Source: Eledone cirrhosa
Taxonomy: Eukaryota
Direction of reading: 5' to 3'
DNA length: 36,243 nt
NCBI GenBank assembly: GCA_964016885.1
Contig: CAXHJY010001099.1
Location: forward strand, 1-36,243
Of this stretch, positions 11,067 through 16,296 are shown in pieces. The position numbers and the translations under genes were made by a program. Below the pieces are notes generated by a model. That model was not told the DNA's origin. It worked only from the letters and a program-made list of their open reading frames with translations, and did no database searches. Each line of letters opens with the position of its first letter. The stretch's first letter is position 1.

Positions 11067-11297
11067 ATATATATATATATATATATATATATATGTGTGT
11101 ATATATATATATGTGTGTATGTGTGTGTGTGTATATATATATATATATATATATATATTAATTTTAACCAAACAAGGTTCATTGATTAATCAATGAATAT
11201 AGTTTTACAATAGATTAGAAGCACTCAACAGTTAGTTTTCTGGAGTTATTAATATTAATTCAAAATATTAATAAATGTAAACGTTCACGTAATCAAA

Positions 11298-11369
11298 ATA
11301 TATTTTATTATATATATTTCGGAGGTACTGTGCTGTTTTTTCAGTACGTCCTCATCAGATAAAATACAT
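11298..11369 (-). ncRNA. Type I hammerhead ribozyme (family E, copy 1)
   Basis: Minus strand: atgtattttat CTGATGA ggac gtactg [11 nt] cagtac ctcc GAAA tatata TA ataaaatatat. 11-bp stem I (one G-U), intact core, AUA triplet, predicted cut between 11309 and 11308. Confidence 0.85.
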
Positions 11370-11454
11370 AAATTGATGTATGACATACCTCAACTGTGCT
11401 GATGGTTCAATTCCAGTATTGGCATATATATATATATATATATATATATATATA

Positions 11455-11639
11455 TGTAAAAGGTAAACAGAAATAACAACACAATCGGTACAGTATAAGG
11501 AAGGGATATATTAGGTTAACGCTTGATATAGCAGGAAGAGAGTCTTAACGTTTCGGACGCTAGTCCTTCATCAGAAGAAAGAATGAGAAATAAGATAGAT
11601 TGAAGGGACGGGCGGGGTGGAATTGGAAAACATGTCTTT
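11455..11639 (-). mobile_element. Short hammerhead-bearing element, family A copy 1 (Penelope-like pLTR type)
   Basis: Homologous to 12209-12440 (inverted) and 13187-13520. Its 3' end abuts (TA)n. Confidence 0.75.
11543..11578 (-). ncRNA. Minimal type I hammerhead motif (family A)
   Basis: Minus strand: tctt CTGATGA a ggac tagc gtcc GAAA cg TT aaga. Palindromic ACGT stem III and an extra A after the core. Confidence 0.65.
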
Positions 11640-11827
11640 CCGCCGCTATGAAGGAATTTAACCATGTACATGACATCCCAAATCATTGACCACCCCCCGT
11701 GACAGACAAGAAAAACAACACATTTTTAGGATTGTTTGATTTGATATTTCTGCTTTTTTTTTTTTTTGTTTTGACTGCATGCCCATATATGGACTGTACT
11801 TTTTGATAAGTTCAGTTAGATTTCCGC

Positions 11828-11987
11828 CGTCCTAATACTGCTGGCTTCGTTCGGATCTAGCTGTCGAAACGGCCGGAGCTCAGCCGTCGGGGTCCTGACT
11901 CTTTTCCTATTACAGACTCTACTACCCTAAGATTCGACTACTCTGGTGCGGTATGGCCCGCCTGGTTTCTTACCGCACTTTCTTTGT
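11828..11987 (+). mobile_element. Family B1 element with a decayed hammerhead and 3' tail
   Basis: Degenerate 5' core and stem II, then gtc GAAA cggc..gccg TC ggggtc, and a tail with the hairpin gtgcggta...taccgcac before (TA)n. Confidence 0.65.
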
Positions 11988-11996
11988 TATATATAT

Positions 11997-12187
11997 ATAG
12001 GAACCAGTAAGACCCCGACGGCTGAGCTCAAGCCGTTTCAACGGCTAATTCTCAGAATTAGCCGTCGAAACGGCTTGAGCTCAGCCGTCGGGGTCTTACT
12101 GGTTCCTATTACCCACTCTACTACCCTAAGTATTGAGTACTTTGGTGCGTTATGGTCCACCTGGTTCCTTACCACATTTCCTTCGTT
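11997..12187 (+). mobile_element. Family B element: 56-bp-arm palindrome with a hammerhead 3' half plus tail
   Basis: Arms 11997-12052 and 12054-12109 with one mismatch. GAAA at 12067, stem III cggct/agccg, GUC ending at 12089. Flanked by (TA)n. Confidence 0.8.
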
Positions 12188-12208
12188 ATATATATATATA
12201 TATATTTG

Positions 12209-12440
12209 CAAGAGATGTCAATATGAATGGACCTGTTATTTTTATCTAAAGACATTTTTTCCAATTCCAACCAATTCCACCCCGCCCGTCCCCTCAATCT
12301 ATCTTATTTCTCATTCTTTCTTCTGATGAAGGGCTAGCGTATGAAACGTTAAAACCCTCTTCCTGCTATATCAAGCGTTAACCTAATATATCCCTTCCAT
12401 ATACTGTACTGATTGTGTTGTTATCTCTGTTTACCTTTTA
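12209..12440 (+). mobile_element. Family A copy 2 (hammerhead core 12323-12350, stem II disrupted)
   Basis: ctgatgaagggctagcgtatgaaacgtt. Reverse-complement match to copies 1 and 3. Ends at (CA)n. Confidence 0.75.
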
Positions 12441-13186
12441 TACACACACACACACACACACACACACACACACACACACACACACACATATTAAGGCTAA
12501 AAAGTGAGTCTTATTGCACTGGAATTTCGTTACTATGTTTCTAAGGAAACATCCACCATATAATATGATTTTCAAATAATTAAAAAAATACTAAAGGACT
12601 TAGAGGCATTTAGTAATAATACAACTAATTTTCCCATTATACATACACTTCGTAAAATAATTAACAAGTCTTCCATTCCAGCGTTTCTATAGCAATCTGT
12701 TGTGTTAATGACGCTTTAACTCAGTTTTATTTCTAGCCATTTTCTTGAAAATTCGGCGCCATTTTTATTTGTTAGAAGAAAAACGGTAAACTACAAATTC
12801 CATTTTCAACACTGTTAATTTTATTAAAGAACATTTGAAATTCTTCAATTAGAGATTATCAACTCAGCAAAAATGCTCGACAGCGTTAGATGACAATTAT
12901 ATTAATGTGAATTTCCATACCAAATGATGTGTGTGTGTGTGTGTGTGTGTGTGTGTGTGTGTGTGTGTGTGTGTGTGTTTTAGGAGAGGAAATAATAAGC
13001 ATTTTAAAAAATTGAACAAAAACTAAACATCTAAAGGTATACATATATATGAGGTATATATATATATATATATATATATATATATATAGGACATAACAAA
13101 TCGTCCATTTTACCTTTTTATTATTATTATTATATATATATATGTGTGTGTGTGTGTGTGTGTGTGTGTGTCTGTGTGTGTGTGTG

Positions 13187-13520
13187 TAAAAGGTAACCAG
13201 AAATAACAACACAATCGGTACAGTATATGGAAGGGATATATTAGGTTAATACTTGATATAGCAGGAAGAGGGTCTTAACGTTTCGGACACTAGTCCTTCA
13301 TCAGAAGAAAGAATGAGAAATTAGAAAATTTGGAGGGACGGGCGGCGTGGAATTGGGAAAAATGTCTTTAGATAAAAATAACAGGTCCGTTCATGTTGAC
13401 ATCTCTTGGCAGAACCACGCGCTTGAGGCAGGTTTCTTCTCTGAAGACCTTCTGCTGTCCAGCTTTCCTGAGAGTTTCTTACCACAGTCTATATTTTCCT
13501 TGGTGTACACTTGCTTATAG
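13187..13520 (-). mobile_element. Family A copy 3, the longest (minimal hammerhead 13273-13308)
   Basis: Minus strand tctt CTGATGA a ggac tagt gtcc GAAA cgtt aaga, with an extra ~110-bp coding-like 5' extension. Confidence 0.75.
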
Positions 13521-13598
13521 TGTATGTATATATATATATATATATATATATATATACACATGTATATATATATATATATATACATACAGTGTATATAT

Positions 13599-13849: not shown

Positions 13850-14253
13850 CAAAATTTTTTATAAATATTTGACATGACCAAGGATGAGATACCTTAACGG
13901 TTCAAGTTATCCCTGGAAAGTTATCTCTCACACACACACACACACACACACACATATATTGAAAGGATAACAAGGACGATTTATTTATTGGTAGGTGACG
14001 TGCGTTTCGCCACTGATCAGCTCAAGGTTCGATCTGTATCGATCCTACCCGACTCAATAATCGGCGGCTCGACGGACCCTTTAAAATGCTACACCTCATC
14101 ACAGAAGTGAACCTAAACATCGAGTGCTCTCCCGGGTGAACCTGCAGTAACCCCAAGTTACACCCCCCGTATATATATATATATATATATATCAGATAGG
14201 GTGTGGTAAAAAACCAACCCACCACCAGAGTACTCGATATATGTATATATAGA

Positions 14254-14464
14254 TCTCTCTCTCTCTCTCTCTCTCTCTCTCTCTCTCTCTCTCTCTCTCT
14301 CTCTCTCTCTCTCTCTCTCTCTCTCTCTCTCTCTCTCTCTCTCTCTCTCTCTCTCTCTCTCTCTCTCTCTCTCTCTCTCTCTCTCTCTCTCTCTCTCTCT
14401 CTCTCTCTCTCTCTCTCTCTCTCTCTCTCTCTCTCTCTCTCTCTCTCTCTCTCTCTCTCTCTCT
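14254..14464. repeat. Pure (CT)n tract, ~105 units
   Basis: Direct inspection. Confidence 0.97.
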
Positions 14465-14567
14465 ATATATATATATATATACACACGTTATTCCGGGTTG
14501 AATCGGAGGTAACCACAGTAAGTAAGGTACTCAATACATTGCAGAGTATAAAAGTTTTAATATAGAT

Positions 14568-14620
14568 GAGATTCTACAGGACTAGAACTGTTTCATTCTT
14601 TAGAAATCATCAGGAATCTC
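14568..14620 (-). ncRNA. Type I hammerhead ribozyme (family C, minus arm)
   Basis: Exact reverse complement of 14622-14674. Confidence 0.8.
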
Positions 14621-14621
14621 A

Positions 14622-14674
14622 GAGATTCCTGATGATTTCTAAAGAATGAAACAGTTCTAGTCCTGTAGAATCTC
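14622..14674 (+). ncRNA. Type I hammerhead ribozyme (family C, plus arm)
   Basis: gagattc CTGATGA t ttc taaa gaa t GAAA cag ttctagtc ctg TA gaatctc. 7-bp stem I, GUA triplet, predicted cut after 14667. Confidence 0.8.
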
Positions 14675-14966
14675 ATCTATATATATATATATATATATCT
14701 TGGTCAGCCAATGAAATCTTCAGCCAACCCTCGAAAAATGTGTCGAACCCGGAACAACTTAGCAGAAAATTGGACCCATTAAGCTCACAGCACACCCATC
14801 TGTCCCTCTGGAATCATTATAGCGTGTTTTATATGCTAACTAAAACTGAAACCCATAGCTTTATTTTATTTTATTATATCATTATATTGTATTTTATTTC
14901 ATTTTAGTAAATCATTTTTTGTTTCTTTTCACACAAATTGGTCTCATTTTCCCGAATTAGAAATGG

Positions 14967-15460
14967 CGAGAGAGTTTGGTGGTGGCGGTGGGAGGAGGGG
15001 ATAGGAGGGAGGGAGGGAGGGAGGGAGGGTAGGAGGGAGATTGAGAGAGAGAGTGCGAGGGAGAGAGGTTAAGAGGGAGATTGAGATAGATAGAGAGAGC
15101 GAGAGGGATGGAGAGAGGTTAAGAGGGAGATTGAGATAGATAGAGAGAGCGAGAGGGATGGAGAGAGAGAGAGAGAGCGGGTTTGATGGTGGTGGGGGGG
15201 GGAGGGAGATTGAGAGAGAGAGCGCGGAGGAGAGAGGGAGAGAGGGTAGGAGGGAGATTAAGAGAGAGAGGGAAGGAGCGAGAGAGGGAAATAGCGAGGG
15301 TGAGAGGTAGAGAGAAAAGGAGAGAGAGAGGGAAATAGCGAGGGTGAGAGGTAGAGAGAAAAGGAGAGAGAGAGGGTGAGAGGGAAGGAAAGAAGGAAGG
15401 AGAGCAGGAGGGAGAGAGAGGTGAGAAGGCGAGAGGAAGAAAGAGAGAGAGAGAGATAGC
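14967..15460. repeat. Purine-rich (GA/GGA) low-complexity tract with small internal duplications
   Basis: Direct inspection. Confidence 0.85.
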
Positions 15461-15572
15461 AGATCGATAATACAGCGTTAACGAAGAAATATTGTAAAAG
15501 TATCTCAAAATATAAAGATAAGGTGAACAGGGAAAATTGTTTTAGTTCATGTAAGACAGGGATTGATGTAGG

Positions 15573-16112
15573 TGTGTATATATATGTATGTATATGTATA
15601 TATGTGTATATATATATATGTATATATATGTATATATATATATGTATATGTATATATATATGTATATATATATGTATATATATATGTATATATATGTATA
15701 TATATATGTATATTTATATATGTATATTTATATATGTATATATATATGTATGTATATGTATATATATATATATGTGTATATATATATGTGTATATATATA
15801 TGTGTGTATATATATATGTGTGTATATATATATATGTGTATATATATATGTATATGTATATATATAAATATGTATATATATAAATATGTATATGTATGTA
15901 TATGTATATATATGTATATGTATATATGTATATGTATATATATATGTATATATATATGTATATATATATGTATATATATATGTATATATATGTATATGTA
16001 TATATATATATGTATATATATGTATATATATATATATGTATATATATATATATATATATGTATATATATATATATATATATATATATATATATACACGTA
16101 TATATATATATT
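15573..16112. repeat. (TA)n/(TATG)n microsatellite
   Basis: Direct inspection. Confidence 0.95.
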
Positions 16113-16115
16113 TAT

Positions 16116-16296
16116 GAAAATGTTTGACCCCGACGGCAGAGCTCAAGCCATTTCGACAGCTATTTCAGGACGTCGAAACGGCTTGAGCTCTGCCGTCGGG
16201 GTTAAACATTTTCCTATTACCCACTCTACTACCCTAAGTATTGAGTACTCTGGTGCGTTATGGTCCATCTGGTTCCTTACCACAACTCCTTCGTTA
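16116..16296 (+). mobile_element. Family B element, second fold-back copy
   Basis: 42-bp arms 16116-16157 and 16172-16213 with two mismatches. GAAA cggc..gccg TC gggg. Tail nearly identical to 12105-12187. Confidence 0.8.

Follow-up and report, generated by a model that had tools for sequence, protein, structure and literature searches.

The window analysed here is a 36,243-nt stretch of the Eledone cirrhosa genome (GCA_964016885.1, contig CAXHJY010001099.1, positions 1 to 36,243 of the forward strand). Between positions 11160 and 16297 it carries a series of short insertions that share a motif, YRTYGAGTRC, ahead of (TA)n arrays. These insertions are stumps from the 3' ends of Penelope-like retrotransposons (PLEs) of the Hydra clade. 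The motif appears to form the 3' arm of a bulged hairpin predicted for the RNA; this hairpin is usually doubled between the hammerhead ribozyme and the start codon of these elements. Because most copies end a few nucleotides before one of the two hairpins, the hairpin is likely to show the copying enzyme its starting point. The features on which the analysis draws are the following.

11160-11220, minus strand: tail spacer of a family E1 copy up to the (TA)n array, containing a 20-bp palindrome (11178-11197)
11221-11246, minus strand: hairpin 1 of family E1 (ACTC-CAG / CTG-TT-GAGT-GC), placed by coordinates and fold; E1 read-through copies have hairpin 2 and a Hydra-type open reading frame (ORF)
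11309-11358, minus strand: predicted minimal type I hammerhead of the E1 copy, from pattern and stem pairing; the predicted cut follows 11309 and lies 78 nt before the motif
11803-11888, plus strand: predicted hammerhead of the B1 copy, a U3:A8 core variant with a long stem II, read from core sequences
11916-11941, plus strand: hairpin 1 of the B1 copy in degraded form, with mutations in the right arm
11997-12189, plus strand: family B fold-back insertion, with an inverted tail-less arm (11997-12052) and a direct arm with tail (12053-12189)
12115-12140, plus strand: hairpin 1 of family B (ACTC-TACT / AGTA-TT-GAGT-AC); the fold-back arm stops about 5 nt ahead of it
14089-14174, plus strand: family F4 stump, motif at 14118-14127; the left arm was lost at the inversion junction in this copy
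14193-14239, minus strand: B-related stump starting at the motif itself, left arm absent
14486-14677, minus strand: family C fold-back insertion, arms at 14565-14677, two opposed hammerheads, tail on one side only
14527-14547, minus strand: hairpin 1 of family C (ACTC-TGCA / TGTA-TT-GAGT-AC), of which RNAfold pairs the lower stem only
16126-16297, plus strand: family B fold-back insertion, hairpin 1 at 16223-16248
11455-11616, minus strand: family A, the 3' end of a Neptune-type PLE with a hammerhead and no hairpin motif, used as negative control
near 12281-12491, plus strand, and 13119-13325, minus strand: more copies of family A

Hydra-clade elements behind the stumps

The preliminary description had listed the motif at seven sites in the window. 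Six of them match YRTYGAGTRC (11230 minus, 12131 plus, 14118 plus, 14239 minus, 14536 minus and 16239 plus), and these are the only exact matches in the whole window. The seventh, at 11927 plus, is the mutated family-B copy (B1) and falls outside the pattern. In 500 dinucleotide shuffles of positions 11001-16400 the motif occurred 0.17 times on average and at most 2 times, a comparison that is partly circular as the motif had been derived from the same sites. For that reason the genome provides the fair test. There the motif followed by 25-55 nt and (TA)6 gave 47,645 forward matches against 632 with the reversed pattern, the reverse-strand count being inflated by the variable gap. Two sub-patterns gave 4179/4334 matches against 75/72 and 3492/3656 against 49/41; in one further search the control count was too high on one strand (128 and 6), and a 63-nt satellite dominated the matches. 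In a regular sample of 60 evenly spaced 10-kb stretches (600 kb), 64 strict sites stood against 10 in the reversed sequence, with a TA run next in 43 of the 64, RCTCY upstream in 43 and both in 35. The motif is therefore real and precedes (TA)n, as had been claimed. Doubling the forward count gives about 95,000, so that this genome would hold roughly 100,000 Hydra-type stumps and retrozymes.

The insertions had been taken for otherwise dissimilar families. This view had to be abandoned, as B, C, E1 and F4 (the copy at 14118) all lead to Hydra-type PLE reading frames, and the motif-bearing families are one clade whose members differ in their untranslated regions. Locus L002, whose end resembles that of the window copy at 16239, has reverse transcriptase (RT) sequence upstream, and its protein led to intact tandem units. 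The units of family B are spaced 3.53-3.54 kb apart and carry a 717-aa ORF. The family B copies in the window are 81-98% identical to the end of the full-length unit, and the fold-back at 11997-12189 is 96-98% identical to a full-length 3.5-kb Hydra-type unit. The single ORF contains RLRWR, DKT, FDVSMG and YRDD, a CxCx5C linker, and CxxC and CxH near the C-terminus, and lacks CCHH; its RT motifs lie at 312-351 and a GIY-YIG-like stretch follows at 591. The hallmarks of the Hydra clade listed in the available text of Craig et al. 2021 (PMC8557442) are an RWK motif, a DKG changed to DKT, a divergent RT4, a CxCX5C linker, no CCHH, and CxxC and CxH near the C-terminus. Family B is assigned to the Hydra clade because its ORF matches these hallmarks; the Neptune traits DKG and the CX2-5CxxC linker are missing from it. 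Equivalents of the Hydra-type motifs are also found in the ORFs of C, E1, F2, F4, F6 and F16, and among 70 aligned homologs RW[KR] is present in 66 and DK[TS] in all 70.

In a quick protein tree, five families of this genome group on a single branch within 40 metagenome homologs, and four Neptune-type proteins are placed at a great distance; the comparison with published Hydra proteins was made by eye. Judged by its motifs, family A would fit the clade that we take to be Neptune, not Hydra. The 717-aa protein matched no Pfam family in a profile set searched without PF26215, and no relative was found in the viral contigs searched. A homolog of it has a confident predicted fold (pLDDT 92.9) with TERT as its best PDB matches (E 4e-10, low TM-scores), a modelled likeness that would agree with the known kinship of PLEs and has no bearing on hairpin binding. 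The motif-bearing families insert preferentially into (TA)n; tandem units, an inverted 5'-truncated copy and a one-sided tail are all present. Since fold-backs, one-sided tails and (TA)n targets have already been described for endonuclease-bearing (EN+) PLEs, here they represent known PLE anatomy.

The motif had also been placed about 40-80 nt 3' of the predicted hammerhead cut, and it lies 38-78 nt from it in the five measurable window copies. Its expected enrichment after hammerheads was borne out in the 600-kb sample, where 13 of 89 hammerhead-like hits were followed by it as compared with about 1% of random windows, but it is no general companion of hammerheads. Where it is missing, the hit is in many cases a tail-less arm from the same families or part of a different PLE family. 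The predicted cores are canonical in E1 and C and of the U3:A8 variant in B, and no canonical core was found in F4. Among 21 distinct B-type cores, TTGA-N-AA occurs in 16 and CTGAGAA, in which C3 and A8 form a mismatch, in 5; the U3:A8 variant is known from Schistosoma PLEs (PMC4209133, in the part available). Hammerheads with the U3:A8 core and a long stem II were seen in family B and in a second family (window 11803-11888; loci L068, L384 and L409). In F4 (window 13963-14088; loci L163 and L410) the 3' half of a hammerhead was seen with no canonical 5' core, and a tail-less hammerhead copy of an E1-related family lies at 13796-13841 (minus strand). A twister-like reading of B1, made by eye, was dropped in view of its U3:A8 hammerhead core. 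Rfam scans gave only matches of microsatellites and palindromes to miRNA families, below cut-offs, with no hammerhead among the 150 of 333 matches listed.

A doubled and covarying hairpin

The predicted hairpin, RCTC-Y(n)R-TY-GAGY-RC, reads from 5' to 3' as RCTC-Y(n)-loop-(n)R-TY-GAGY-RC. RCTC complements GAGY in a 4-bp lower stem, which is followed by a 2-nt bulge and a short upper stem, and the RC after GAGY is unpaired and conserved. Of the signal anatomy originally proposed, the motif stands; the conserved unit is the whole hairpin, including a left arm 5' of the motif, and it occurs twice per element unit. A (CTAA)n component had been included in the signal; CTAA is found at 4 of 48 homologous hairpins and is absent at 14239 and 14536. 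A conserved terminal hairpin had likewise been proposed. The quoted inverted repeats and the palindrome at 11178-11197 are present in the window sequence, and the palindrome is imperfect in most other E1 copies seen. Metagenome tail spacers fold like their shuffles (mean z 0.24, 0 of 18 below -2), and of the families in the genome itself 2 of 7 fall below -2.

Covariation was measured in metagenome loci, of which 77 were fetched for the 70-protein alignment. The 54 loci whose match starts near the protein start were examined and clustered to 42 groups. Right arms were identified without using the left arm, and pairs were counted by anchored scripts, as MAFFT left the left arms unaligned. The 52 right arms, in 31 of the 42 groups, had RCTC upstream in 48 cases against 10.4 in shuffles. 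Pair 1 is Watson-Crick in 44 of 46 (29 C:G and 15 T:A) against 23.9 with partners shuffled. Pairs 2 to 4 are Watson-Crick in 26 of 44, 22 of 30 and 15 of 25, against 11.3, 8.0 and 6.9, and pair 5 is at chance. The Eledone genome gives a weaker version of the same result from tail clusters that include over-split families and chance hits: RCTC is present in 28 of 46 (9.3 in shuffles), and pairs 1 to 4 are Watson-Crick in 23 of 28, 20 of 27, 17 of 27 and 13 of 18, against 14.5, 13.2, 6.7 and 6.2. Because shuffles ignore relatedness, pair 1 of hairpin 1 was mapped on the quick protein tree (27 labelled rows), where T:A versus C:G needs 8 changes, at least 5 of them forced by strong branches.

The lower stem is ACTC:GAGT in most first hairpins of this genome and GCTC:GAGC in most others, and it is swapped as a whole to TCTC:GAGA at loci L305 and L318 and to GTTC:GAAC in the L371/L401 family. 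The inner length between the arms varies from 3 to 17 nt in the metagenome loci and up to about 30 nt in the genome. On the sense strand G-U pairs outnumber A-C (11 against 4), and one family closes its hairpin with a cUUCGg loop; UUCG loops are stable. Action as RNA rather than as DNA is favoured. The same hairpin was read by eye in the published Hydra-2_Amil and Hydra-2_Ajap, and twice in Hydra-1_Ajap. A string search of the PMC8557442 supplement gave six hits, four of them in the Hydra file (212 lines) and two in the Naiad and Chlamys sequences (6,367 lines). Neptune-type copies lack the motif (0 of 39 in two families), also where hammerheads flank both ends of the ORF. A generic bulged hairpin was found in 7 of 18 motif-less tails against 2.9 in shuffles (maximum 8), which is not clearly above chance.

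The hairpin is usually doubled. Within up to 230 nt before the ORF, 42 of the 54 metagenome loci have at least one GAGYRC and 33 have at least two. In the Eledone genome a double-hairpin pattern gave 340/340 matches against 4/11. In 18 metagenome groups the two hairpins repeat with a period of 57-83 nt. From hairpin 2 to the ATG there are 14-63 nt in six families of the genome, and in the metagenome loci its distance to the protein match is mostly 19-49 nt. TAT or ATA occurs within 10 nt upstream of 16 of 18 first hairpins and 13 of 18 second hairpins. Where units are joined by read-through, the second hairpin stands right where genomic copies break into (TA)n.

Copy ends and a candidate start signal

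Every TA array in the genome loci that could be aligned to one of seven reference families was scored, giving 181 junctions. Of these, 132 fall within -9 to +1 of a hairpin (53 at hairpin 1 and 79 at hairpin 2), where about a tenth would be expected; most of the loci were chosen for motif plus TA, which favours hits at hairpin 2 and leaves the hairpin-1 figure less exposed. The F4 left arm was probably mis-assigned, so that three ends at -13 would by eye be at -3 from a further ACTC, and the "other" ends of family F9 near -50 probably reflect an internal TA-rich hammerhead stem. Because junctions cluster beside each hairpin, the known PLE "tail" is the stretch between the twin hairpins, and hairpin 2, which defines the end, is normally left out of the insertion. 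Among 143 terminal sites, 44 have an inverted arm. None of the 44 arms extends beyond the motif, and of the 36 sites where a left arm was called, 22 have the inverted arm ending within -8 to +1 of hairpin 1. Of 41 metagenome loci tested, 16 had a usable boundary, within -6 to +4 of a GCTC in 10. The RNA data consist of one 140-nt contig piece in one RNA run and are uninformative; in run X19, whose sample may be the assembly's own, loose ends in TA lie 5 nt before hairpin 1.

Fold-backs present both ends in one insertion: the inverted arm ends before it reaches hairpin 1, and the direct arm continues through the tail as far as hairpin 2. In the 600-kb sample and the window, 24 fold-backs are bounded by TA on one side and by a tail containing the motif on the other, 48 are extended on one side by sequence in which no motif was detected, and two have the motif in both arms; the arms of these two are 83-84% identical, and they are probably separate insertions. 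Many more fold-back families, whose one-sided tails measure 26-99 nt and lack the motif, were seen at loci L336-L395, and an inverted B-type stump without tail lies at about 13600-13650 of the window. Stumps that start at or within a few bases of the right arm, with the left arm lost, occur at window position 14239 (minus strand) and at loci L007, L190 and L246; this start is possibly a preferred truncation point.

The arrangement of sequences and ends suggests that each hairpin probably anchors the element's protein, and that the nicked (TA)n end primes an internal RT start at UA or AU just 5' of it. Read-through RNA from a tandem unit would fold both hairpins, the RT-endonuclease protein would bind them, and the endonuclease would nick the (TA)n target. 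The nicked end would then pair with UA or AU just 5' of a hairpin and prime copying there. A start at hairpin 1 would give a tail-less end and a start at hairpin 2 an end with a tail; hairpin 1 and its motif would be visible in genomic copies because starts at hairpin 2 leave the tail in the copy. The two-start model is carried over from the Poseidon PLE, which starts copying at two internal RNA sites and whose tail is the stretch between them (PMC11167929, in the part available). More speculatively, two protein subunits might use the two hairpins on two target strands and so produce a one-tailed fold-back, a dimer step that comes solely from a prediction in PMC11167929. The preliminary description had suggested a recognition element for the mobilising RT/endonuclease or for 3'-end formation. 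This suggestion gains from copy ends that cluster just 5' of the motif and from non-coding units that keep it, and it loses its (CTAA)n and terminal-hairpin parts.

The non-coding units are tandem units of 528 nt (L371:6650-7700) and 1322 nt (L408). Both keep the hammerhead and both hairpins, the 528-nt unit with a GTTC:GAAC lower stem, and have no ATG frame over 53 aa. They are Hydra-derived retrozymes. The window families B, C, E1 and F4 have coding masters and so are not retrozymes, a class to which only these two related families outside the window belong.

A reading of the hairpin in DNA is unlikely, though it has the most to recommend it after an RNA anchor. A GIY-YIG endonuclease would recognise the hairpin, either in single-stranded cDNA or displaced DNA or as duplex sequence, cut TA a few bases away and trim a longer intermediate. 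The junction data look alike for a cut and a start, and conservation of the unpaired RC would agree with this reading. In the parts of these reports available, PMC8557442 ascribes the tail to resolution by the endonuclease, earlier work cited in PMC11167929 has the D. virilis endonuclease needing the tail for recognition, and bacterial Ssn GIY-YIG enzymes cut single-stranded DNA at sequence-specific hairpins (PMC11893778). The variable arm spacing and the covarying stems, however, speak against recognition of a duplex, the excess of G-U over A-C and the cUUCGg loop speak for RNA, and the Poseidon protein starts directly at the tail boundaries (PMC11167929). It is quite improbable that the hairpin instead forms RNA 3' ends, the transcript being cut or trimmed just 5' of it and RT starting at a true 3' end. 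The same junctions would result, and Poseidon RNA-seq read ends coincide with the start sites, but Poseidon also starts internally on longer RNAs (both in the available text of PMC11167929), and an end made 5' of the hairpin would separate the hairpin from the template.

Still less probable are promoter or translation signals in the 5' untranslated region (UTR), with junctions clustering only through TA microhomology to (TA)n. The closeness of hairpin 2 to the ATG and the frequency of TA or AT just upstream of the hairpins would agree with this. Yet the non-coding units keep both hairpins, the UTRs are AT-rich throughout while the ends concentrate in two short windows, and the conserved upstream TA would be left unexplained. 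Functionless residual homology, which the preliminary description had tied to families alignable throughout, is very improbable: all traced motif-bearing families do fall in one protein clade, but the spacers between the hairpins are no more alignable than their shuffles (13.6 against 12.8 as the mean local score over 153 pairs) and yet the arms covary across proteins that are about 40-65% identical.

Several observations weigh against an RNA anchor that fixes both starts. Family C has no canonical hairpin 2 (21/18 matches against 59/112 in the control) and has 133 read-through copies with a shortened junction, which looks like a deletion between two GC dinucleotides. At the place of hairpin 2 it has a 4-bp GCAC-N5-GTGC hairpin, exact and with the same start in 9 of 14 copies (loci L445-L456). 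Its tails end 6-7 nt before this substitute, in the same register despite the lost hairpin. A plain stem may be enough at the distal position, both starts may be measured from hairpin 1 alone, or the model may be wrong; family C is a natural hairpin-2 deletion and so a test case for it. Elsewhere the upper stem of hairpin 2 is often weak, with T-T as pair 2 in 10 of 44 and a mean z of -1.5. Junctions lie away from the hairpins in 49 of 181 cases, in a set whose selection favours hairpin 2. A right or left arm is missing from 11 of 42 metagenome clusters and from 18 of 46 genome tail clusters, truncations and chance hits among them. The published Hydra-1_Obim, Hydra-1_Crog and Hydra-1_Amil show by eye degenerate forms at best, and at 11 to 4 the G-U excess that favours RNA over DNA is small. 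Finally, Neptune and other PLEs form tails without the motif, so that the hairpin is not a general PLE solution.

A bolder form of the RNA anchor, which we put forward tentatively and consider doubtful, makes it a duplicated, phylum-spanning counterpart of the telomerase template-positioning element. A dimer would grip both hairpins on one RNA and prime both strands of the nicked (TA)n at once. If true, this would explain the tail, its one-sidedness and the fold-back in one step, and the anchor would be a portable cis-signal that mobilises retrozymes.

Other repeats were noted in passing. Satellites made of tail pieces include a 63-nt array with hairpin 1 of family B and a repeat of 83 nt made from the tail of family C (loci L208-L216 and L441). 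The window also holds a homogeneous 111-nt satellite of about 23 copies (5656-8280), a homogeneous 37-nt satellite of 16 copies (10202-10795), and a coding-like, GC-richer stretch flanked by microsatellites (about 2950-4370). Elements with tRNA-like heads and short bodies at about 10875-11065 and 5200-5550 are probably short interspersed elements (SINEs).

Relation to known systems

The elements share with the Hydra clade of Craig et al. 2021 the protein hallmarks, a predicted hammerhead in the pseudo-long terminal repeat (pLTR), (TA)n insertion, 5' truncation, partial tandems, an inverted 5' copy and a one-sided tail. The available text of that report (PMC8557442) describes no conserved tail hairpin or motif. 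It gives tails of 30-40 bp, as compared with the 57-83 nt between hairpins here, and elements generally below 3 kb. The family B unit, with its U3:A8 hammerhead core, is longer because of a long 3' UTR.

Poseidon_Ac is the PLE nearest in mechanism. As far as the available text of Frangieh et al. 2024 (PMC11167929) goes, two internal starts bound its tail, its target is AT-rich and a protein-binding region lies 3' of the hammerhead, all of which would hold for the elements described here. It belongs to a different clade, and initiation takes place inside an AC-rich stem-loop within the ORF start, whereas here the ends are found on the 5' side of a bulged hairpin and external to it; this hairpin is conserved in sequence, duplicated and part of the 5' UTR. 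Animal non-LTR retrozymes (Cervera and de la Pena 2020, PMC7229834; Li et al. 2026, bioRxiv 10.64898/2026.07.22.740005) have the same non-coding tandem units and pLTR-derived type I hammerheads, and the parts of both reports available name no cis-signal for mobilisation. The two retrozyme-like units found here keep both hairpins, and most window copies are stumps of coding families. Ssn GIY-YIG nucleases and their NTS hairpins (PMC11893778, in the part available) also combine sequence and structure in a hairpin signal near the gene; they are bacterial single-domain nucleases of single-stranded DNA without RT, and bear only on recognition of the hairpin in DNA.

Neptune-clade PLEs such as family A have a hammerhead, microsatellite insertion and a fixed 3' end in common with the Hydra-type families, and differ in lacking the motif and in a protein far outside the Hydra group. 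Outside PLEs, the epsilon element of hepatitis B virus and telomerase RNA each use a bulged, RT-binding stem-loop that fixes the RT start, epsilon by templating protein priming inside its bulge. Here the likeness is a resemblance only, as the start lies outside the hairpin and is probably target-primed.

Our search of the literature, which excluded Repbase reports and subscription journals, found no description of the twin hairpin, and the only in vitro study of a PLE reports internal starts and, in the text available, no recognition signal (PMC11167929). The twin hairpin bears on template choice and on the origin of the one-sided tail in PLEs, which are the sister group of telomerase. As a short, covarying and doubled hairpin at a fixed distance from both ends it permits direct mutational tests, for which family B offers intact, near-identical 717-aa copies suited to expression, and it is diagnostic for Hydra-type stumps and retrozymes. 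Set against these systems, the elements are known and the signal is real; what is new is a clade-wide, duplicated and covarying hairpin beside both ends of the copy.

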